DNA of 32,071 nucleotides from Acidobacteriota bacterium (lineage in GTDB: Bacteria; Acidobacteriota; Thermoanaerobaculia; Multivoradales; DATKCC01): assembly GCA_050050355.1 (NCBI GenBank), contig JASFUJ010000001.1, positions 1 through 32,071 of the forward strand, in the 5' to 3' direction. The notes under the pieces were generated by a model. That model had not been told where the DNA came from. It saw only the letters and a program-made list of their open reading frames with translations, and searched no databases. A program made the translations under genes and the position numbers. Of the stretch, positions 1-32,071 are shown one piece after another (within the stretch, counting starts at the first letter, position 1; each line of letters begins with the position of its first letter).

Positions 1-963
1 CACTTCAAAAAGAAGCCGCTGACCAAATAAAAGCAATTGAAGACCAAAAAGAAGCCGACGCAATCGAAGCCGCTAAAAAGAAAATGGAAGCGGACAAAGA
101 AGCCGCTGAAGCTGCGATTGAATTGGCAAGATTTGAATTAAGCGAATATATACGCGCGAATAAGTCGAAGCTTGATTCAGATAAATTCTTAACACAAGAA
201 GCGGTTGCAGAAGAAACGCGAAGGCTTGAAGCACTTGCCGAAAAGCGTCGGGAATATGAAGCTTTAAGACTTGAAGAAGGTCAGATTTCCCAGCTTGAAT
301 ATAATGAAGCTATTGCAACAATAAACGAAGAAAATCAAGCTTCTATTGACGAACTGAATCAAGCCAGAAAGGAAGCTGAAGCTGAACAAAGGGCAATCGA
401 CGCGGAAAACGAATTGATATTTCTGGAAGAACAAGCGTCAACGCAATTTGAAGCGTTAAGCAGAAGACTTGAAAACGAACGTTTGGCTGAAATAGCCAAC
501 GCCGAAAAGACTGGGGCTGACATAGATAAAATAAATCAGAAGTACGCGCAAAGAAAACAGAATCTTGACGAATCCGTAAAGACCGCGCAACTTCAAGGAA
601 CGCAACAAACGCTTGACGCCGTTTCTTCGGCTTTAGGAGAACAGACAAAAGCGGGGAAAGCCGCCGCGATTGCTTCGACTTTAATTTCGACCTATCTGGG
701 GGCGCAACAAGCTTTTACTTCTTTGTCTTCTATTCCTATTGTCGGAACTGTTTTAGGAGTTGCCGCCGCCGCCGCCGCTGTTGTTTCTGGTTTATCAAGG
801 GTAAGCAAGATAAGAAGCACCCCAGACAAATATTCAAAAGGAGACATTTTAAGGGGGCGAAGTCATTCACGGGGCGGAATACCTTTTTCAATTGCTGGGG
901 GTCTTGGTTTCGAAGCTGAAGGCGGCGAAGCTTTAATCAATAAAAAATCAACTTCAATGTTTG
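1..963 (+). repeat. wrap-around / terminal redundancy copy A (partner 31109-32071)
   Basis: Hand alignment at constant offset 31108 shows 1-127 identical, 128-858 diverged and 859-963 identical, with no net indel. Confidence 0.9.
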
Positions 964-3074: not shown

Positions 3075-3091
3075 AAGGTTTAAAATTAAAC
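3075..3091 (-). promoter_or_regulatory. candidate early promoter/operator box (GTTTAATTTTAAACCTT on minus strand)
   Basis: This 17-mer is identical to the copies at 3968-3984 and 9002-9018. It contains TAATTTTA (Bacteroidota -7 consensus TAnnTTTG with the last base changed), with TTTTG 17 nt upstream. It ends 5 nt before the ATG at 3069. Confidence 0.5.
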
Positions 3092-3358: not shown

Positions 3359-3772
3359 TTAAAAAGGACAATCGGACGCGCCTTTGCTGGCGTTCTGTCT
3401 TAATGTCAATAATTGAATGTTATCAATTGTATAACCTTTTGAATTATCAATTCGGTCAATAGTAGCATTTTGCCCGCGCTTTCCTTTGCTTATAAGATAG
3501 CCAGTATCAGAACAGAACTTTCGGAATTGTGAAATTGTTATTTCGAAGGGCTTGTTCCTTCTTCTGGCATTACCTTTAAATTGATTGAAGCGCGTTCCAA
3601 CAGGGTCAAATTCACGGCGTTTTCTTGCATAGTGTTTATGACAAAGACCGCCTTTTCTTTTAATCGGTTCGTTTGTGCAATTATAAGCGCAACAATACCG
3701 CCCCGCTTTCTTTTTGGCTTCACTTATGCAAAACATAAGCTGTTTATTCGTCAGCCGAAGAAAGGTATTCAA
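3359..3772 (-). CDS. HNH homing-type endonuclease (free-standing)
   Basis: It has an N-terminal Cys/His cluster (CCAYNCTNEPIKRKGGLCHKHY) and a C-terminal TIDRIDNSKGYTIDNIQLLTLRQNASKG, which is the HNH_3-type D-R-x-D-N...N-x-x motif. An alternative start at 3736 (MFCISE) would remove the 29-nt overlap with 3744..3944. Confidence 0.75.
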   Translation of the reverse strand: MNTFLRLTNKQLMFCISEAKKKAGRYCCAYNCTNEPIKRKGGLCHKHYARKRREFDPVGTRFNQFKGNARRRNKPFEITISQFRKFCSDTGYLISKGKRGQNATIDRIDNSKGYTIDNIQLLTLRQNASKGASDCPF

Positions 3773-3967: not shown

Positions 3968-3984
3968 AAGGTTTAAAATTAAAC
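3968..3984 (-). promoter_or_regulatory. candidate early promoter/operator box (GTTTAATTTTAAACCTT on minus strand)
   Basis: It is the identical 17-mer, lying in the 47-nt gap between the stop at 3992 and the ATG at 3944. Confidence 0.5.
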
Positions 3985-3991
3985 AAAAATA

Positions 3992-4471
3992 TTAAATATT
4001 TGCAGCCCCGCCGAAATATTTTCCGACGAAGAAAGAAGTTTCAATCGGTGTGTCGTCCCCTATTTCAGTTCTGAACCAGTCAAGGAAGGCGCAAAGTTCT
4101 TTTATTTTTTTATTCGTGCTTTCTTCTTTGACTTCAAGTTCTTTGATTTCGTCAAGGGCTTCAATAACTTGTTCGTAAACTTCGGGGCTTGTAAGCTGGT
4201 TAGTTTCATAAAGTTTATTGAATTCCTTTATACTGTGTAATACTGAAGCGTGGTCGTAAGTGCCGTTTAAGGCTCTGCCAATGGTAGCCAAAGAAGCTTT
4301 TGTCTTTTCCTTACAGATTTTACAATAAACCTTTTTCATGTCTGAAACAATTCGCTTCCTTGATTTCATCCCTATATCTGGAACGCCTGAAAACTGTTGC
4401 ACAAGGAATTTAATCCTTGTGCATTTATCAGTTAAAAACCTTTCGTAATCGACTGAATTATTCATTTTCAA
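3992..4471 (-). CDS. DnaA C-terminal (domain IV)-like DNA-binding protein
   Basis: KASLATIGRALNGTYDHASVLHSIKEFNKLYE resembles the DnaA domain IV signature (S-L-x-x-I-G-x-x-F..-DHSTV-x-H-A-x-x-K-I). There is no AAA+ domain (159 aa only). Confidence 0.5.
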   Translation of the reverse strand: MKMNNSVDYERFLTDKCTRIKFLVQQFSGVPDIGMKSRKRIVSDMKKVYCKICKEKTKASLATIGRALNGTYDHASVLHSIKEFNKLYETNQLTSPEVYEQVIEALDEIKELEVKEESTNKKIKELCAFLDWFRTEIGDDTPIETSFFVGKYFGGAANI

Positions 4472-5654
4472 TCATGTTTAAAGTGATGGTTTTATAATAT
4501 TCAACGCCTAATTTAACAGACGTCAAAAGAACTTCTTCAAGTTCATAATCGCGGACAAAAGAAAACGTTTTGACGCGTTCTTCTTTGGTATAAAGGTCAG
4601 AATCTTCGTAAAGATAATTACGTTTGAATTGTTCAATTGCTTCTTGATATTCTGGAAGCGTGTCGTCAATTATTCCGTGCTGAAAACAAAATCTTTTGTA
4701 TTCGTCGGCGAAAACATCGGGCGGGCAATCAACAAGGCAATGACGAAGGCGGAAAATATCAGCGTTATATAAATACAAATAAGCGCGCCCTTGCCATTCA
4801 TAGCCAGTTGTTAAAGAAGCTTGCATAAAAGTTCGGGGATTCCAAGAACATTTTGTGTCGTCAATTACAAGCGCGTCAACTGTTTTTTCGCTTCCTTCAA
4901 CTTCCATGTCTTTAAATTCGGTTATTACGTCGGCTTCGCCTGTAATATGATTTTTATATTCACGCTTTTCGTTTTTCACGTACATAATACCGTCAACGAA
5001 TGATATTAAATTGATTGCGTCTTCTTCAGCTTGAAGACCCTTGCGAAGCTTCTTGTCTGTTACTTCTTCTTTGAAACCCTTTTCGTTTTCAAGCCAGACT
5101 TCTTTTATATAAGTTTTTGCGCCTTGCGAAAGTTCTGGCGGTCTGGCGTTACGTTCTTTTAAGTCCCAAAGACGCGCGTTTTGTGTTGGTGTTAATCCTT
5201 TTGGTTGTTTAAGCCTGTTTTTGTAGTCGTCGCGCTTTTGCATTTGCGAAGGGGTCAAGGTCTTTCCGTCTTTTACTTTTGCGTTCCAGTCGTCAAGTTC
5301 AGCTTGTTGTTTTTCGGTTAAACCGATTGGCGTTCTTTTGGCAAGTTCTAAAGCTTCCATTTCTTCGCGTTGCTTTTCGGTTAAGCCGTGTCTGATTAAG
5401 CCGCCAGCAAGCAACCCGATTTTTGAACTTCTGAAGAAAATTTCTTCAATAGGGGTTTTAAAGTTTTTAGTCAAAAAATTTGAACATTCAATAACGTTAT
5501 CGTTGCCAACACCGTCGCCGAATTTAATGTTTTGAGAACCGCAAGTCGGAACGTCAAACATACACTTTTCACATAAATTTGATTTAGAATCTTTTGCTTT
5601 CATTTTACTTGAATTTAATTGATTAATATTAAGCTTCAATAAGTTTGTTTTCAA
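4458..5654 (-). CDS. YqaJ/lambda-Exo-like PD-(D/E)XK (RecB-family) exonuclease with N-terminal Cys cluster and an inserted repeat region
   Basis: It has a YqaJ-type start (SSKIGLLAGG), motif II (TGEADV), motif III (VIDDTKCS, reading D-x-K) and QxxxY (WQGRAYLY). An alternative start at 5603 (MKAKD) would avoid the overlap with 5629..5856. Confidence 0.6.
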   Translation of the reverse strand: MKTNLLKLNINQLNSSKMKAKDSKSNLCEKCMFDVPTCGSQNIKFGDGVGNDNVIECSNFLTKNFKTPIEEIFFRSSKIGLLAGGLIRHGLTEKQREEMEALELAKRTPIGLTEKQQAELDDWNAKVKDGKTLTPSQMQKRDDYKNRLKQPKGLTPTQNARLWDLKERNARPPELSQGAKTYIKEVWLENEKGFKEEVTDKKLRKGLQAEEDAINLISFVDGIMYVKNEKREYKNHITGEADVITEFKDMEVEGSEKTVDALVIDDTKCSWNPRTFMQASLTTGYEWQGRAYLYLYNADIFRLRHCLVDCPPDVFADEYKRFCFQHGIIDDTLPEYQEAIEQFKRNYLYEDSDLYTKEERVKTFSFVRDYELEEVLLTSVKLGVEYYKTITLNMIENE

Positions 5655-6210: not shown

Positions 6211-6228
6211 TAGGTACAAATTTAAACC
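6211..6228 (-). promoter_or_regulatory. candidate early promoter (variant box GGTTTAAATTTGTACCTA on minus strand)
   Basis: It contains an exact TAnnTTTG (-7) match, TAAATTTG. A TTG lies 19 nt upstream, at the end of the terminator stem, and the ATG at 6191 is about 25 nt downstream. Confidence 0.6.
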
Positions 6229-6237
6229 AAATAATTT

Positions 6238-6281
6238 AAAAAACAAGCGGAAACGGTAAAAAAATAAACCGAATCCGCTTG
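6238..6281 (-). terminator. rho-independent terminator after the Rad52-like gene
   Basis: The stem pairs caagcgga (6244-6251) with tccgcttg (6274-6281), with an inner cggt/accg pairing. On the minus strand it is followed by TTTTTT (6238-6243). Confidence 0.75.
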
Positions 6282-6285
6282 CGTG

Positions 6286-6978
6286 TTATTTGCTTTCTTC
6301 AATGGACTTAACAAAAAGATTCAAATACTTCTTCAATAAATCCTTCGAAGCTTCAGTTTCTTCAGCGGTTTCAAGATACTTATTATAAGTGTGTTCAACT
6401 TCGCTGACTGTTGCGGCTTGTTTTAAGAAGTGGTCAAGTCGTTCAAGCTTCTTTTTATCGGCGTGGTTCATTTCTGGAATTTCCGCTTTCTTTTGGTCAG
6501 CGTGTTCTTGTCCGTAAATGTCCCAGCAAAAACCGAATTCGCTTGCGCACTTTTTAAAGGCGTCAGAAGCGGCGGCTTTATATCCGTTTCCAATATCAGA
6601 AGCGTAAGTTGTAGTAACATTTTTATTCACTTCTGTTTTAAGTTGAAGATAATGTTGTCCAAACTGTTCGCGTTTAATAGTCATTCCGTTCAGCCAGATA
6701 GTCAAACGACCGTGAACAATAACTTCTTTTGAAGATGGGATATATTCACGGGAAACAACTTCAAAACAAAAGTTCCCGCCAGTTACTAACGTTACAAGGG
6801 CTTTAACGTAAGCCGCCTTAACTGATTTGTAAGTAAAGCCGCTTTTGTCAGTCTTGATTTCAACTTCGCTGTCTGGCGTTTTGCGGTTGATAATCTTCAT
6901 TTGACTTGGGTCAAATACAGGTTTATGACCTTCGAATAAAGCCAGTTCTGACTTTGTGAAATAATTTGCTTTTCTCAT
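6286..6978 (-). CDS. Rad52/Sak-like single-strand annealing protein
   Basis: KSGFTYKSVKAAYVKALVTLVTGGNFCFEV, VIVHGRLTIWLNG and GYKAAASDAFKKCASEFGFCWDIYG parallel the Rad52 N-terminal domain blocks (Y-I-x-G..N..FG..GW; beta hairpin; K-x-A-x-S/T-D-x-x-K-R-A...FG...Y). Confidence 0.6.
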   Translation of the reverse strand: MRKANYFTKSELALFEGHKPVFDPSQMKIINRKTPDSEVEIKTDKSGFTYKSVKAAYVKALVTLVTGGNFCFEVVSREYIPSSKEVIVHGRLTIWLNGMTIKREQFGQHYLQLKTEVNKNVTTTYASDIGNGYKAAASDAFKKCASEFGFCWDIYGQEHADQKKAEIPEMNHADKKKLERLDHFLKQAATVSEVEHTYNKYLETAEETEASKDLLKKYLNLFVKSIEESK

Positions 6979-6989
6979 AATTGAATTTA

Positions 6990-7868
6990 TTAATCGTTGT
7001 TTAATTCATCGTTTACAAATGACTTTAATTGAAGCCTATATTCAGAACGTTCTTCTTCTTCGGTTTCCATTAAGTAAGAATAAGCTTCTTCGTCAAATAT
7101 GTCGTTGATTGCATCAAGACAAAGACGTTGAAGTTTCTTAGGGTCAACCGCGTCAAGTTCAACTTGTCCAAGACCGTCCCAGTTCGCGGTTCTTGAATCT
7201 GTTTTTTTAGCTGGCGCGGGCGGCAAGTTCCATTCAACGACCTGTTCTTCAAGCAAGGCAATTCTTTTGACTTCAACTGTTACGCCTAAGTCAATAAAGT
7301 TTTGTTGAATACTTCGGGGAATATCTTCGCCGCTGGGGTCATAGTCCCCAAAATATAAAATAATTGGAATTTTGCCTTCGTTTCTGGCAAGCTTAAACCG
7401 CTTTGAAGCGTCGTAAAGAAAAGTTAAAGACGGATAACCTTTGCACGGGGAAAGCGCAACGTCCATTTCGTCGCAAGGGCTTTGAAAAACACCTTGAAGG
7501 GCTTTCTTTTCGATAAATACTTCAGGGTAATAAGATTGATTTTCCCAACGGTTTTTTGAATAGTGGTTCATCCATGCGCGAAGCTGGCGTTTTGCGTAAC
7601 TTACAGAACTTTCAACAGTTGTTTCTTCATAATCTGTAAAGCCAATTGTTTCGCGGTCGTTGTCTGAAAATGTGTCGAAGTCAACAAGACCTTGCCAGCG
7701 GGCTTGAATCATAGCGTTTACAACGCGTTTGTAATGCTGGATTGTGTTTGTCATTCCGCGCGCAACAAGTCTATAATGAAGCCCGCGAATAGTTAAAACG
7801 CCCTTTTCATATTGTTCAATTTCTTCAAGCGCGTTTTCAGTTATCCAAGTACGATTAAATTTATCCAT
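6990..7868 (-). CDS. Top6A/Spo11-like protein (winged-helix Tyr motif + Toprim domain); JetD-like alternative
   Basis: TIRGLHYRLV provides the R..Y motif. VFIEKKALQGVF provides the Toprim Glu. CKGYPS matches the KGYPD signature. ILYFGDYDPSGEDI provides the Toprim DxD. VELDAV lies near the C-terminus. Confidence 0.55.
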   Translation of the reverse strand: MDKFNRTWITENALEEIEQYEKGVLTIRGLHYRLVARGMTNTIQHYKRVVNAMIQARWQGLVDFDTFSDNDRETIGFTDYEETTVESSVSYAKRQLRAWMNHYSKNRWENQSYYPEVFIEKKALQGVFQSPCDEMDVALSPCKGYPSLTFLYDASKRFKLARNEGKIPIILYFGDYDPSGEDIPRSIQQNFIDLGVTVEVKRIALLEEQVVEWNLPPAPAKKTDSRTANWDGLGQVELDAVDPKKLQRLCLDAINDIFDEEAYSYLMETEEEERSEYRLQLKSFVNDELNND

Positions 7869-7891
7869 AATTGAAAAATGATTGATTAATA

Positions 7892-7908
7892 ATAGTACAA
7901 AATTAAAC
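7892..7908 (-). promoter_or_regulatory. candidate early promoter (variant box GTTTAATTTTGTACTAT on minus strand)
   Basis: It contains an exact TAnnTTTG match, TAATTTTG (7898-7905), with TTTG exactly 19 nt upstream. The ATG at 7868 is about 30 nt downstream. Confidence 0.6.
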
Positions 7909-7944
7909 TAAATAATTGAAACACCAAATAAAAACAGTAAAAAA

Positions 7945-8112
7945 TTAAACCAGATAAATATTCGGGTAAAACTTACCTTCAGGACTAAATTCAAATTGAA
8001 CTTCTTTTGTGTCCGAATAGATTGAAACTGTTGTTCCGATTAAAGTATTTACTGAAGTAAAGTTGCAATTCATTTGTTTCAAGGTGTCCTTGAAGCGTTC
8101 TAAGTCTGTCAT
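7945..8112 (-). CDS. small hypothetical protein, 55 aa (below ORF-track cutoff)
   Basis: Hand translation gives MTDLERFKDTLKQMNCNFTSVNTLIGTTVSIYSDTKEVQFEFSPEGKFYPNIYLV. An ATGA start/stop overlap with the 8109..8594 gene suggests translational coupling. Confidence 0.6.
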   Translation of the reverse strand: MTDLERFKDTLKQMNCNFTSVNTLIGTTVSIYSDTKEVQFEFSPEGKFYPNIYLV

Positions 8113-8594
8113 ATATTTACGGTTGTTGAACGAATTAAAAAATCAAGTTTATAAGCTTTTGCTGGGTTCGCGTGAATCCATAAATGACCGCGACGGGACA
8201 CGGCAAGCCAGAAAGGAACGTAATTCAGAAGCTTTCCTTTTCGTCCCGCTTTGTGATGAACTTCACGGGCTTTTATTAAACCTTTATTCCTGAATATTTC
8301 ATTCGGATTGTGAACTTCTGACGGGTCAATTATGCCGTCAAATACAGCTTTACAGACAGGGCAATATTTATTTTCTTCCTTTGACAAAAAAGTCTTTCGC
8401 TTTTTTGTGTAAGTATAGGATTCGCGCCGCCTTTTATCGCTTACCTGTTTAATCGGTTTACGTTTCTTATGTGGCTTGTCCTTCTGGTCTGCATAAGCGC
8501 AAGCTGGGGAACAATATTTGTCGGTTGACCTGTAAAGTTTGAATTCTTTGTTGCAACCCTTACGGGCGCAAATTCGAGTTGTTTTAAATTTCAT
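8109..8594 (-). CDS. NinG/Rap-like or HNH-type zinc-binding nuclease (candidate)
   Basis: It has an N-terminal CxxxC...CxxxC (CARKGCNKEF...YCSPACAYA), a basic linker, a second CPVC, and then EVHHKAGRKGKLL...HLWIH, an HNH-like His cluster. Confidence 0.5.
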   Translation of the reverse strand: MKFKTTRICARKGCNKEFKLYRSTDKYCSPACAYADQKDKPHKKRKPIKQVSDKRRRESYTYTKKRKTFLSKEENKYCPVCKAVFDGIIDPSEVHNPNEIFRNKGLIKAREVHHKAGRKGKLLNYVPFWLAVSRRGHLWIHANPAKAYKLDFLIRSTTVNI

Positions 8595-9001: not shown

Positions 9002-9021
9002 AAGGTTTAAAATTAAACCTT
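9002..9021 (-). promoter_or_regulatory. candidate early promoter/operator, perfect 9+2+9 palindrome AAGGTTTAA-aa-TTAAACCTT
   Basis: It contains the identical 17-mer box, and here the inverted repeat is complete. It overlaps the stop codon of the RHH ORF (9013-9015) and lies 47 nt upstream of the ATG at 8955. Confidence 0.5.
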
Positions 9022-9420: not shown

Positions 9421-9774
9421 TTACAGTTCTTTAACGGTTCTTAATTTTAAAGCCTTTATAAAGTCAGCGTTCATCTTTGGCGAATCTTCGGTATAAATTA
9501 AAAGGTTAAATCTTAAACCGAATAAGCTTGTTGATTCATTGACTAAAATAGTCGTATGATGTTTATTGACTTCTTTGAAGTGTTCGAAATGTTCTTCGTC
9601 ATTCGAAACGAATCCGATTATAAGACTTTTGCCTTCAATCGGTAATGAATGATAATTGTTCATAATAATTGATTCGCCGTTATAGTGCTTATGAAAAGCC
9701 CGACGCGCGTCGCCTTCTGTTCTTGCGCTAATGATAGAACCGTGAAAAGTTCCAGTAACTACATAAGTATTCAT
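9421..9774 (-). CDS. hypothetical protein
   Basis: 117-aa ORF in operon packing. Confidence 0.7.
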   Translation of the reverse strand: MNTYVVTGTFHGSIISARTEGDARRAFHKHYNGESIIMNNYHSLPIEGKSLIIGFVSNDEEHFEHFKEVNKHHTTILVNESTSLFGLRFNLLIYTEDSPKMNADFIKALKLRTVKEL

Positions 9775-29829: not shown

Positions 29830-32071
29830 ATGCCAGAACAAGTAAATATTGCAAGCTTAACGATTAACGTTGACGACGTTATCAAAGAAAGTGTTCGACT
29901 TCAAAAGGAAATCGACAAGGTAAAAAACGCGCAAAAAGACCTTGACCGTACAACTGAAGAAGGGGCGGCGGCTTACGCGAAGTCTGAAGCACAATTAAAG
30001 AATTTGAATAAAGCTTACAGGGACAATCAGAACTTCGCGGCGGCTTTAGATGCTGCAAACACAGACCTAACAAAGACAATGCAAGTTCAAGGTAAGTCAA
30101 CGCAAGAACTTTACGACAGCCGACGTCAACTTCAGCAAATTGCGAAAAACATTGCAGGGGACACAGAAGAAGAAATTCAGCTTAGGGAACAATTAAACAC
30201 AGCCATTGACGAACAAACAGAAGCTTTGCGCGGTCAAAGTGCTGAATTTATTCAGGGAAAAGATTCAATTGGGGAATATACGAAAGGAATCAACGCTTCT
30301 GATTTAAGTCTTCAAAATATTATTACGGCTTCTTCTGAAGCTGGCGGCGCGACAAATCTTTTGAAGGGTGGATTGAAAGCCGCTACTTCTGGAATGATGG
30401 GATTTATTAAAGCTTCGCTTGCATTTATAGCAACGCCCGTTGGGATTGTTCTTGCTGCGATTGCTGGCGCGTTCTTATTGATTAAAAATGCAATGCAACG
30501 GAACGAGGAAACAATGAACAAAGTTAAAACGGCGGTGTCTGGCATTACTGGCGTTTTTAAAGGTTTGTTAAAATTCCTTGAACCGCTTGGGAAATTCCTT
30601 GTTGACGGACTTGTAAAAGGTTTTGAATTAGTTGAAAAAGGAATATTTAAAACAATGCAAGCCCTTGAAAAAGGTCTTCGTCTTGTAGGTCTTGACAAAG
30701 CCGCCGACAATCTTCACAACTTTACGGCGGCAATTGAAGAAACTGCAAAGGCAAACAAAGAACTTACGCTTGCTGAATTAGAATACACAAAAGCGCAAAG
30801 GCAAGCAAGAAAGACGCAACTTGAATATCAGAAACAAGCCGAAAAGCTTCGTCAAGTTAGGGACGACGAAAACAAGTCGATTAAAGAACGTATTGCAGCA
30901 AACGAAGAACTAGGAAAGGTTTTGAACAAACAGTTGAACGAAGAACTTGCACTTGCACAAAAAGCCCTTGACGTTGCGAATCTTAGAATTAAAGTTGAAG
31001 GCGAAACAACCGAAGCACTTGACGCCCGCGCCGAAGCTGAAACTGAAATTGCAGACATTCAAGAACGAATAACAGGTCAAACTTCTGAACAATTAACGAA
31101 TCGTGTTGCACTTCAAAAAGAAGCCGCTGACCAAATAAAAGCAATTGAAGACCAAAAAGAAGCCGACGCAATCGAAGCCGCTAAAAAGAAAATGGAAGCG
31201 GACAAAGAAGCCGCTGAAGCTGCGATTGAATTGGCGCGGTTTGAATTAAGTGAATATATTCGGGCGAACAAATCAAAGCTTGATTCAGATAAATTCCTGA
31301 CACAAGAAGCGGTTGCAGAAGAAACGCGAAGGCTTGAAGCACTTGCTGAAAAGCGTCGGGAATATGAAGCTTTAAGACTTGAAGAAGGTCAGATTTCCCA
31401 GCTTGAATATAATGAAGCTATTGCAACTATAAACGAAGAAAATCAAGCTTCAATTGACGAACTAAATCAAGCAAGAAAGGAAGCTGAAGCTGAACAGAAG
31501 GCAATTGACGCGGAAAACGAATTGATATTTCTTGAAGAACAAGGGAATAAAACCTTTGAAGTTATGCAACGGCGGCTTGAAATGGAAAAAGAAGCCGAAA
31601 TTGCAAACGCTGAAAAGACTGGGGCTGATATTGACAAAATAAATAAGAAATACGCCCAACGTGAAAAGCTTCTTCAGGATTCTATTTCAGACGCTAAACT
31701 TGCGGGTTTTCAATCGGTGTTTGATTCATACGCTTCAATTCTTGGGGAACAAACAAAAGCAGGGAAAGCCGCTGCGATTGCTTCAACATTAATTTCAACA
31801 TATCAAGGGGCGCAACAAGCTTTCACTTCGTTGTCAGGTATTCCAGTTGTCGGAACGGCTTTAGGTATTGCGGCGGCGGCGGCGGCTGTTGTTGCTGGTA
31901 TTCAGCGCGTGAATAAAATTAGAAGTTCGCCTGATAAATATTCAAAAGGGGATATTTTACGGGGAAGAAGTCATTCACGGGGCGGAATACCTTTTTCAAT
32001 TGCTGGGGGTCTTGGTTTCGAAGCTGAAGGCGGCGAAGCTTTAATCAATAAAAAATCAACTTCAATGTTTG
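29830..32071 (+). CDS. tape-measure-like protein, N-terminal and central part (3' end runs off the window; continues as 1..1193 after wrap-around)
   Basis: It is absent from the ORF track because no stop occurs before the window end. I translated it codon by codon from ATG 29830 (MPEQVNIASLTINVDDVIKESVRLQKEIDK...) with no in-frame stop through 31140, after which it is collinear with 1..963. It is coiled-coil rich and has a hydrophobic segment, GFIKASLAFIATPVGIVLAAIAGAFLLI. Joined across the wrap, the gene would be 2472 nt. Confidence 0.7.
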   Translation, partial: MPEQVNIASLTINVDDVIKESVRLQKEIDKVKNAQKDLDRTTEEGAAAYAKSEAQLKNLNKAYRDNQNFAAALDAANTDLTKTMQVQGKSTQELYDSRRQLQQIAKNIAGDTEEEIQLREQLNTAIDEQTEALRGQSAEFIQGKDSIGEYTKGINASDLSLQNIITASSEAGGATNLLKGGLKAATSGMMGFIKASLAFIATPVGIVLAAIAGAFLLIKNAMQRNEETMNKVKTAVSGITGVFKGLLKFLEPLGKFLVDGLVKGFELVEKGIFKTMQALEKGLRLVGLDKAADNLHNFTAAIEETAKANKELTLAELEYTKAQRQARKTQLEYQKQAEKLRQVRDDENKSIKERIAANEELGKVLNKQLNEELALAQKALDVANLRIKVEGETTEALDARAEAETEIADIQERITGQTSEQLTNRVALQKEAADQIKAIEDQKEADAIEAAKKKMEADKEAAEAAIELARFELSEYIRANKSKLDSDKFLTQEAVAEETRRLEALAEKRREYEALRLEEGQISQLEYNEAIATINEENQASIDELNQARKEAEAEQKAIDAENELIFLEEQGNKTFEVMQRRLEMEKEAEIANAEKTGADIDKINKKYAQREKLLQDSISDAKLAGFQSVFDSYASILGEQTKAGKAAAIASTLISTYQGAQQAFTSLSGIPVVGTALGIAAAAAAVVAGIQRVNKIRSSPDKYSKGDILRGRSHSRGGIPFSIAGGLGFEAEGGEALINKKSTSMF
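31109..32071 (+). repeat. wrap-around / terminal redundancy copy B (partner 1-963)
   Basis: See copy A. The flanks are identical (127 nt and 105 nt) around a diverged core. Confidence 0.9.

Follow-up and report, generated by a model that had tools for sequence, protein, structure and literature searches.

A Topo Mini-A protein encoded beside a Rad52-like gene in a phage contig: family membership, genomic context and possible functions

Does a phage in which no replicase can be detected use a DNA-breaking enzyme and a strand annealase to start replication by recombination? This question is raised by contig JASFUJ010000001.1 of assembly GCA_050050355.1 (Acidobacteriota bacterium), from which positions 1 to 32,071 of the forward strand were analyzed; this whole stretch is called the window. 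An earlier note, made from the sequence alone, had read two adjacent genes on the minus strand of the window as a stand-alone Top6A/Spo11-like protein, co-transcribed with a Rad52-like annealase. Our analysis supports the first part of this description. It also places the protein, with high confidence on the basis of a published signature and of profile and structure matches, in Topo Mini-A, a family reported by Takahashi, Da Cunha, Krupovic, Mayer, Forterre & Gadelle (NAR Genom Bioinform 2019/2020; PMC7671362). The implication that the window encodes a new kind of protein therefore had to be dropped; Mini-A has already been described, and what is new here is one more member and its local operon fusion with the Rad52-like gene. 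The coordinates of the two open reading frames (ORFs) and the 11-nt gap between them (6979-6989) were reproduced.

6990..7868, minus strand: Mini-A gene, product of 292 aa, with a CAP-like N-terminal domain carrying R28 and Y32
within 6990..7868, minus strand: Toprim domain of Mini-A, with E120, G144-Y-P and D175-x-D177-x-x-G180; K221 and D224 are conserved too
6286..6978, minus strand: gene for a Rad52-like single-strand annealing protein, 230 aa, 11 nt downstream of Mini-A

Family membership of the 292-residue protein

The four motifs on which the first description was built are all present and follow each other in the order given there: TIRGLHYRLV (26-35), VFIEKKALQGVF (117-128), CKGYPS (142-147) and ILYFGDYDPSGEDI (170-183). 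Their conservation was evaluated in an alignment of the window Mini-A with 74 representatives from an exhaustive HMMER search, which are 30-62% identical to it. R28, Y32, E120, K121, G144, S147, D175, D177, G180, K221, D224, E237 and A240 are invariant in this alignment; hence the Tyr, the Glu and the DxD residues (Y32, E120, D175 and D177), whose conservation had been proposed as a check, occur in 75/75 sequences. Because these key residues are invariant across the aligned homologues, the motifs are not a matter of chance. The position in front of Tyr32 is more variable, with Y in 57, F in 13 and H in 5 of the 75 sequences; the window protein has H. The C-terminal T2BI box of the window protein reads QVELDAV (235-241). 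In the alignment its variable position is occupied by V (40 sequences) or W (29), followed by E (75), L (73), D (73) and A (75), while the last position is L, I or V.

Topo Mini-A proteins are ~300 aa long, contain CAP-like and Toprim domains and are encoded by viruses, without an ATPase subunit and with no B subunit nearby. Their signature consists of an Arg ahead of the catalytic Tyr, an E, a DxDxxG motif and a C-terminal T2BI box, xWELDAL, which separates Mini-A from Topo VI (R/KxExxA/S) and Topo VIII (RVELNAM) (PMC7671362). All of the published features are found in the window protein: the length, R28/Y32, E plus DxDxxG, the T2BI box, and a viral genome without Top6B/GHKL. It thus shares with the family RxxxY, E, DxDxxG, the [W/V]ELDAL box, the viral origin and the missing B subunit. 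It differs from the usual family member in having H31 ahead of the Tyr, where Y or F is common, and in having V where the published T2BI box has W, as do 40/75 homologues. Neither the Bacteroidota-phage host lineage nor the annealase-operon fusion of the window is covered in PMC7671362.

Database searches agree with this assignment. The 292-aa protein matches phrog_6247, 'DNA topoisomerase', with an E value of 2.3e-62, and tblastn found homologues in 84 phage records, many of which carry the annotation DNA topoisomerase. The proteins that are 60-63% identical come from phages of Alistipes, Bacteroides, Parabacteroides and Elizabethkingia; those with ~35% identity come from Pseudomonas PaMx25/NP1-like, Xylella Sano, Chi-like Salmonella, Brevundimonas and other phages. 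Pseudomonas and Salmonella are host genera named as carrying Mini-A (PMC7671362), and the identity of the window protein to the 'DNA topoisomerase' proteins of their phages is 35-37%. In total, 6382 clusters at 50% identity match the family at E<=1e-3 (HMMER).

The kinship with Top6A is borne out by three comparisons. A search of the 177,635 PDB sequences with the Mini-A family profile gave a sole match, the Top6A of M. jannaschii (1D3Y; E 0.015); in a sub-threshold stretch of this alignment tlRqlYY falls on TLREAYY, with R28/Y32 opposite R99/Y103. A structural model from AlphaFold2, built with the alignment, reached a pLDDT of 95.2; it predicts that a helical domain at the N-terminus (H6-58, H85-101) precedes an alpha/beta Toprim domain (113-230), with further helices at the C-terminus. 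When this model was run against the PDB with Foldseek, the best two matches were M. mazei Topo VI A chains (probability 1.00 and 0.99; 158-186 aligned columns), and the RecR Toprim came next. Finally, hhalign of the Mini-A profile to Top6A Toprim fragments (Pfam PF21180) gave 91% probability and an E of 1e-6, with GYP, DxDPxG and LPxxPxKxxD among the aligned motifs. The Top6A homologues had been collected with an 81-aa fragment from the 1D3Y alignment, which returned Toprim fragments only, and this comparison therefore spans the Toprim half and not the CAP domain.

These results have to be balanced against others. Not one of the Top6A/Spo11 models in Pfam or NCBIfam matches the 292-aa protein, even at an E limit of 1. 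The whole-chain TM-score between the Mini-A model and Top6A is only ~0.3, and the equivalence of the CAP domains therefore rests on the motifs and on the sub-threshold alignment. In addition, biochemical characterization of Mini-A is absent from the literature (PMC8185306, PMC11894792), and its function is still described as unsolved in the literature of 2021-2026. Taking both sides together, the view that the 292-aa protein is a stand-alone Top6A/Spo11-type protein, with a CAP tyrosine and a Toprim domain and without a B subunit, is supported. In the comparison with Top6A and JetD that had been proposed for this protein, Top6A is the top match; the JetD matches found by PADLOC with the window Mini-A are marginal (E 1e-3 to 5e-3) and confined to the DxD region. 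A phmmer search of Mini-A against the PDB gave a lone actin-related match, which was judged spurious, and Foldseek of the model against BFVD returned nothing informative beyond a fragment homologue.

Three known systems are close enough to be compared. With Top6A/Spo11 (PDB 1D3Y, 2Q2E, 9O0G) Mini-A has in common the catalytic Arg/Tyr, the Toprim Glu and DxD, GxP, LPxxPxK..D and the T2BI Glu, but it is ~100 residues shorter, without the N-terminal Top6B-binding region, and has no B subunit. Topo VIII, a plasmid-borne type IIB topoisomerase, also resides on mobile elements and has the same catalytic motifs; it differs by its fused or adjacent Bergerat ATPase and transducer and by the box RVELNAM in place of xWELDAL (PMC7671362). 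MksG/JetD, the nuclease of the Wadjet/MksBEFG plasmid defence, is like Mini-A in being a dimer with a Top6A-like Toprim and without an ATPase domain of its own. Unlike Mini-A, in which the tyrosine is invariant, MksG/JetD has no catalytic CAP tyrosine and partners an SMC-like complex (PMC10123090), whereas the window is without SMC genes.

A two-gene unit in the window and an accessory cassette among relatives

In the window phage the two genes do behave as one promoter-terminator unit, as had been proposed, since they are bracketed by promoter cassettes and a hairpin.

7895..7950, minus strand: early promoter cassette upstream of Mini-A (repeat family D20; conserved in related phage loci)
6237..6282, minus strand: intrinsic-terminator-like hairpin and T6 run (from folding versus shuffles)
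6214..6269, minus strand: second early promoter cassette, with 14-mers at 6214-6227 and 6256-6269, which drives the next unit (p109, p75, exonuclease onward)

The upstream cassette contains the 14-mers GTTTAATTTTGTAC (7895-7908) and GTTTAATTTTTTAC (7937-7950), 42 nt apart, together with a Bacteroidota-type -33 TTTG (7925-7928) and -7 TAATTTTG (7898-7905). The promoter pattern TTTG-N19-TAATTTTG, at 7898-7928(-), is thus present as claimed and lies in an enriched repeat; the interval 7892-7908 that had been given for it covers only the -7 part. By itself the bare pattern TTTG-N17-21-TANNTTTG is not enriched in the window (1 match vs 2.0 expected). The 14-mer GTTTAAWTTTGTAC, allowing <=2 mismatches, occurs 19 times in the window vs 2.4 expected. 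Its pairs at a distance of 42 nt, 7895/7937 and 6214/6256, exactly bracket the two-gene unit, and the ~60-nt cassette is also found ahead of early genes in related phages.

The strong hairpin terminator predicted after the second gene is confirmed by a stem at 6243-6282 next to a T6 run at 6237-6242. It has a predicted dG of -21.6 kcal/mol (z = -6.1), and 0/200 shuffles folded equally well. The upstream 14-mer of the next cassette sits in the loop of this hairpin. Scanners for sigma-70 promoters and simple terminators called neither a promoter cassette nor the hairpin, so neither element rests on those scans; the internal loops of the hairpin at 6237-6282 explain why it escaped the simple terminator scanner.

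A palindromic variant of the early 14-mer, GTTTAATTTTAAAC, was seen at 3078-3091, 3971-3984 and 9005-9018 (-), and also at 9495-9519. It recurs in early intergenic regions inside a 25-32-nt repeat (families D2, D7, D18) and may function as an operator or represent a second class of promoter.

Among close relatives Mini-A is not tied to this arrangement. In the window the gene is inserted between a NinG/HNH-like gene and the recombination/replication module. In the locus with the most similar copy (L249, 83% identical) it follows the DnaA-like gene instead of preceding the annealase, and in those with copies of 75, 73, 72 and 68% identity a promoter cassette and/or a small gene separates it from the Rad52-like gene; loci L006, L036, L250 and L252 have a promoter box at this place. 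A copy with 71% identity is located in a Mu-like phage. Frameshifted copies occur in the isolated Parabacteroides phage PDS1 (L003, MN929097, 8983-9872), where the annotation splits Mini-A into two genes, 'DNA topoisomerase' and 'DNA primase', as well as in the IMG/VR locus L036 (6001-6950). The GC content of the Mini-A gene (0.40-0.43) is close to that of its flanks, and composition therefore gives no sign of recent acquisition. In the phage group of the window Mini-A is an accessory, mobile early-gene cassette.

In order to see whether Mini-A is coupled to an annealase in general, as the earlier note had suggested, we surveyed ~240 Mini-A loci from IMG/VR, drawn with three differently ordered profiles. 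A representative set of 86 loci was formed from Mini-A clusters at 70% identity with >=2.5 kb per flank. BLAST clustering of 925 neighbour proteins gave as the largest family one that is present in 9/86 representative loci. Neighbours were then counted by Pfam and PHROG family in 85 representative loci. For the Pfam census, same-strand neighbours of >=140 aa within 2.2 kb of Mini-A were considered. Downstream these were Helicase_C (8), ResIII (7), SNF2 (5), AAA_24 of the Sak4 type (3), DUF5906 (3) and DUF669 (2); upstream, ResIII (6), Helicase_C (4), DNA ligase (3) and AAA_24 (2). The PHROG census of the neighbours concurs, with helicases, primases, ParB, Sak4 (3), Cas4 exonuclease, single-stranded DNA-binding protein (SSB) and HNH.

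A number of results from these surveys weigh against a coupling of Mini-A and annealase. Mini-A has no conserved partner among the ~240 loci. The hidden Markov model of the Rad52-like family detects a neighbour of Mini-A only in the window, L006 and L036, and Sak4 is near Mini-A in 5 of the ~240 loci even with iterated searches. The co-transcription of Mini-A with an annealase is peculiar to the window phage. Mini-A is absent within 4-5 kb in several related phages whose HNH, Rad52-like, exonuclease and EndoVII genes correspond to those of the window; and unless the frameshifts in PDS1 and L036 are sequencing errors, Mini-A is dispensable at least there. Also, when 24 neighbour clusters were compared with the Rad52-like profile by hhalign, only the window's own family matched. 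Seen from the other gene, seven loci with Rad52-like homologues of 73, 65, 56, 54, 51, 41 and 30% identity are without Mini-A within 4-5 kb. The general pairing thus failed, and the linkage survey found annealase genes to be rare beside Mini-A, largely the outcome that the earlier note had named as speaking against it. Together, these results indicate that the adjacency in the window is local mosaicism inside recombination/replication modules and not a conserved two-gene system.

In many phages Mini-A lies within a replication/recombination module; in PaMx25 (L004, NC_041953, 5896-11344), for example, the genes directly behind it encode Sak4, an SSB-like DUF669 protein, a Cas4 exonuclease and a helicase. 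Other lineages show stable synteny: DnaQ-like, Mini-A and phrog_9513 keep this order in ~18-24 loci, and every Nipunavirus and Chivirus record listed carries Mini-A.

Several further observations were made in these loci. PaMx25 represents the one distant lineage in which a non-homologous annealase adjoins Mini-A, and an ATP-dependent DNA ligase is encoded just upstream. Gut Bacteroidales phages (L001-L003, L020-L031 and others) have, in an order that is conserved among them, a DnaQ-like 3'-5' exonuclease, Mini-A, phrog_9513, NinG/HNH, a small gene and SSB. About 2.5 kb upstream of Mini-A these loci encode an SMC/RecN-like ATPase of ~480 aa, a possible parallel to Wadjet. The protein phrog_9513 (229 aa), at position +1 of the gut-phage Mini-A, was considered as a hidden Rad52-like protein and rejected, because BLAST, hhalign and a PDB profile search gave no similarity. 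In one Mini-A clade (L212, L214, L228, L198 and 8 others) the +1 gene encodes ~211 aa with 10-12 tandem 'WGNAKV' hexapeptide repeats; this protein looks beta-helix- or bactofilin-like.

The recombination module and the phage genome

The conserved recombination/replication module downstream of Mini-A in the window is ordered as Rad52-like, small gene, lambda-Exo-type exonuclease, DnaA-domain-IV-like and EndoVII-like. The relevant features, in addition to those given above, are the following.

8109..8594, minus strand: NinG/HNH-like protein, 161 aa; conserved upstream flank of the Mini-A insertion site
4458..5654, minus strand: exonuclease, 398 aa, with a lambda-Exo/YqaJ-type core in residues 173-317 (phrog_5715, E 2e-28; PDB 3K93, E 1e-5)
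3992..4471, minus strand: DnaA domain IV-like protein, 159 aa (PDB 1J1V, E 2.6e-4; homologues carry Pfam Bac_DnaA_C)
3359..3772, minus strand: Endonuclease VII/HNH-like protein, 137 aa (phrog_3322, E 4e-26; phrog_1035, endonuclease VII)

The 230-aa protein alone reaches Pfam Rad52_Rad22 (PF04098) with an E of 0.006 and 17.0 bits, below the cut-off of 20.3. Its homologues give a better signal: 25/34 match Rad52_Rad22 at E<=0.01 (best 8e-9), and 2 match Mgm101. A PDB search with the profile of the family gave no match. The proposed Rad52/Sak-like nature of the second gene is therefore weak for the window protein by itself and good for its family, and the name Rad52-like annealase is reasonable.

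The Rad52-like protein has its conserved partner in the exonuclease; in the window their genes are separated by two small genes (p109 and p75), which lie between the second promoter cassette and the exonuclease gene. The two proteins are kept as a pair in all relatives examined, with or without Mini-A; the PDB entry 3K93 matched by the exonuclease is a 'phage related exonuclease'. In this respect the window resembles SynExo pairs such as lambda Exo/Red-beta or Sak/Rad52-like plus exonuclease. It is unlike the classical modules, which are without a dedicated break-making enzyme, in that it adds the optional Mini-A. The DnaA domain IV-like gene directly follows the exonuclease gene in related phages too. 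Its product is a candidate origin binder or replication-initiation factor, or a decoy for host DnaA boxes, and the EndoVII-like protein is a candidate junction resolvase of the recombination module.

The N-terminal ~170 residues of the exonuclease are an extension outside the PHROG and PDB matches, and relatives align from ~residue 60. The extension contains a Cys cluster (CEKC...C...C) and four 'GLT(E/P)xQ' peptide repeats, which arise partly from a 33-nt DNA repeat with 63-nt spacing (5293-5388(-)); it could be a protein-interaction module.

With regard to the whole genome, the window encodes portal, TerL, TerS, protease and endolysin. PHROG scans of its ~36 ORFs detected no Top6B/GHKL, no JetABC and no polymerase, helicase or primase, which agrees with what had been read from the sequence before. 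Window positions 1-963 recur at 31109-32071, with identical termini (>=50-127 nt) and 84% identity overall. The 151 mismatches are internal, many of them spaced by multiples of 3, and the junction falls within a tape-measure-like gene. The pattern suggests that the genome, of ~31.1 kb, is circular or terminally redundant and that the assembly combines two strains. Since related contigs also span 29-32.5 kb, the phage genome is probably complete at ~31.1 kb.

The host assignment of the contig deserves a comment. At NCBI the exact window proteins bear the label of an 'Acidobacteriota bacterium' metagenome-assembled genome (PVG07_00055/00050). The nearest relatives of the window siphophage have Bacteroidota as hosts (Alistipes, Bacteroides, Parabacteroides, Elizabethkingia), and the Bacteroidota consensus TTTG/TAnnTTTG is recognizable in its early promoters. 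The contig is probably a Bacteroidota-type siphophage that was mis-binned into an Acidobacteriota genome.

Possible functions of Mini-A

What could Mini-A do in such a phage? The explanation that we favour, with some reserve, is that of an accessory cassette beside the recombination module which encodes a Tyr/Toprim DNA-cleaving enzyme. The window copy is rather likely to be catalytically active, and to judge from its residues the protein is most likely a Tyr/Mg2+ enzyme that cleaves and rejoins DNA. A Mini-A homodimer would cut DNA by a Mg2+-assisted attack of Tyr32, which is expected because the CAP Arg/Tyr, the Toprim Glu and DxD and the T2BI Glu at the dimer interface are invariant. The product would be a 5'-phosphotyrosyl link, as a nick or a staggered double-strand break, which would then be resealed or processed. 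The breaks or the relaxed DNA might feed the adjacent exonuclease/annealase and thereby recombination-dependent replication and concatemer formation. Mini-A would in this way boost the DNA metabolism of the phage without being essential. There are precedents for activity without a B subunit: mouse SPO11 alone forms covalent double-strand breaks in vitro (PMC11922746), and MksG, which is without the CAP tyrosine, is an ATP-independent Top6A-like dimeric nuclease (PMC10123090). That Mini-A really supplies substrates to the annealase/exonuclease module is a more doubtful proposition. The reaction may end in a resealed, topoisomerase-like break, an origin nick or a recombinogenic double-strand break.

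Of the other explanations, the one that survives best, although we consider it unlikely, is an ATP-independent topoisomerase, which would cut and reseal DNA so as to relax supercoils or unlink intermediates of replication, recombination or packaging, leaving no breaks behind. The homology to the cleavage-religation core of type IIB topoisomerases, the strictly conserved T2BI dimer-interface box, the occurrence in replication modules with helicases, primases and ligases and the widespread annotation 'DNA topoisomerase' would all fit such an activity. To our knowledge, however, no relaxation activity has been reported for Top6A alone, and the phage can use the topoisomerases of its host. Furthermore, Mini-A has no B subunit, ATPase or transducer (PMC7671362), and directional strand passage is therefore not possible.

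A role of Mini-A as a replication initiator has already been proposed for viruses without other replication genes, such as skuldviruses (bioRxiv 10.1101/2021.07.29.453957; 10.64898/2026.02.13.705702). In this case Mini-A would nick or cut the origin, remain covalently linked to the 5' end and leave a 3'-OH for the host polymerase, in a rolling-circle-like mode comparable to that of HUH Rep. The probably complete genome, in which the PHROG scans found no polymerase, helicase or primase, is in favour of this proposal, as is the invariant Tyr/Toprim chemistry, which suits an enzyme that nicks and holds. But Mini-A is missing from the 4-5 kb on either side of the Rad52-like gene in close relatives that have this early module, its position shifts between relatives, and both L036 and the cultured phage PDS1 carry frameshifted copies. 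Most Mini-A phages have a primase or helicase of their own, and the DnaA-domain-IV-like protein, which is kept with or without Mini-A, is the better initiator candidate. For the window phage we regard this role as distinctly improbable.

An equally small chance is given to the view that Mini-A is a viral analogue of Spo11. It would introduce programmed, covalently capped double-strand breaks into the phage's own or a co-infecting genome; the lambda-Exo-type exonuclease would then resect these breaks, and the Rad52-like protein would anneal them. The earlier note had proposed such a start of replication in a phage without a replicase. One half of that argument stands, as no replicase was detected; the other is weakened by the DnaA domain IV-like candidate (3992-4471), which undermines the claim that nothing else could start replication. 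If the view were true, it would amount to break-initiated recombination-dependent replication or homing, on the principle by which meiotic recombination begins, and the window phage would be a rare case in which breaker and annealase are fused in one operon.

The least probable explanation is a selfish or offensive nuclease that cuts the host or co-infecting genomes devoid of Mini-A, with homing-like spread or marker exclusion as the exonuclease and annealase copy the cassette during repair, or alternatively one that acts against DNA-protein machines of host defence. The patchy presence and variable insertion position among close relatives, the cassette's own promoter in relatives, the frameshifted copies, the neighbouring recombination genes in the window clade and the weak JetD profile matches can be put forward for it. 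We know of no homing endonuclease with a Top6A-like fold, and the stable synteny in other lineages (the ~18-24 DnaQ-like/Mini-A/phrog_9513 loci and the Nipunavirus and Chivirus records) also argues against it. MksG and JetD are Top6A-like dimers that work as plain nucleases (PMC10123090), but the invariant CAP tyrosine of Mini-A, absent from MksG, argues for controlled covalent chemistry rather than degradation.

The fact that Mini-A is an optional cassette in this group of Bacteroidota phages, moving around an otherwise conserved recombination/replication module, argues against an essential initiator role there, and across ~240 loci it is without a fixed protein partner. Near-identical phage pairs with and without Mini-A exist in nature, and Mini-A phages can be cultivated (PaMx25/NP1, Chi-like phages, TCUEAP2, PDS1, BKO1-3); knock-out and covalent-end-mapping are therefore feasible. 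Mini-A, a very large viral family, keeps the full set of Spo11/Top6A cleavage residues and is relevant to how type IIB topoisomerases and Spo11 originated.

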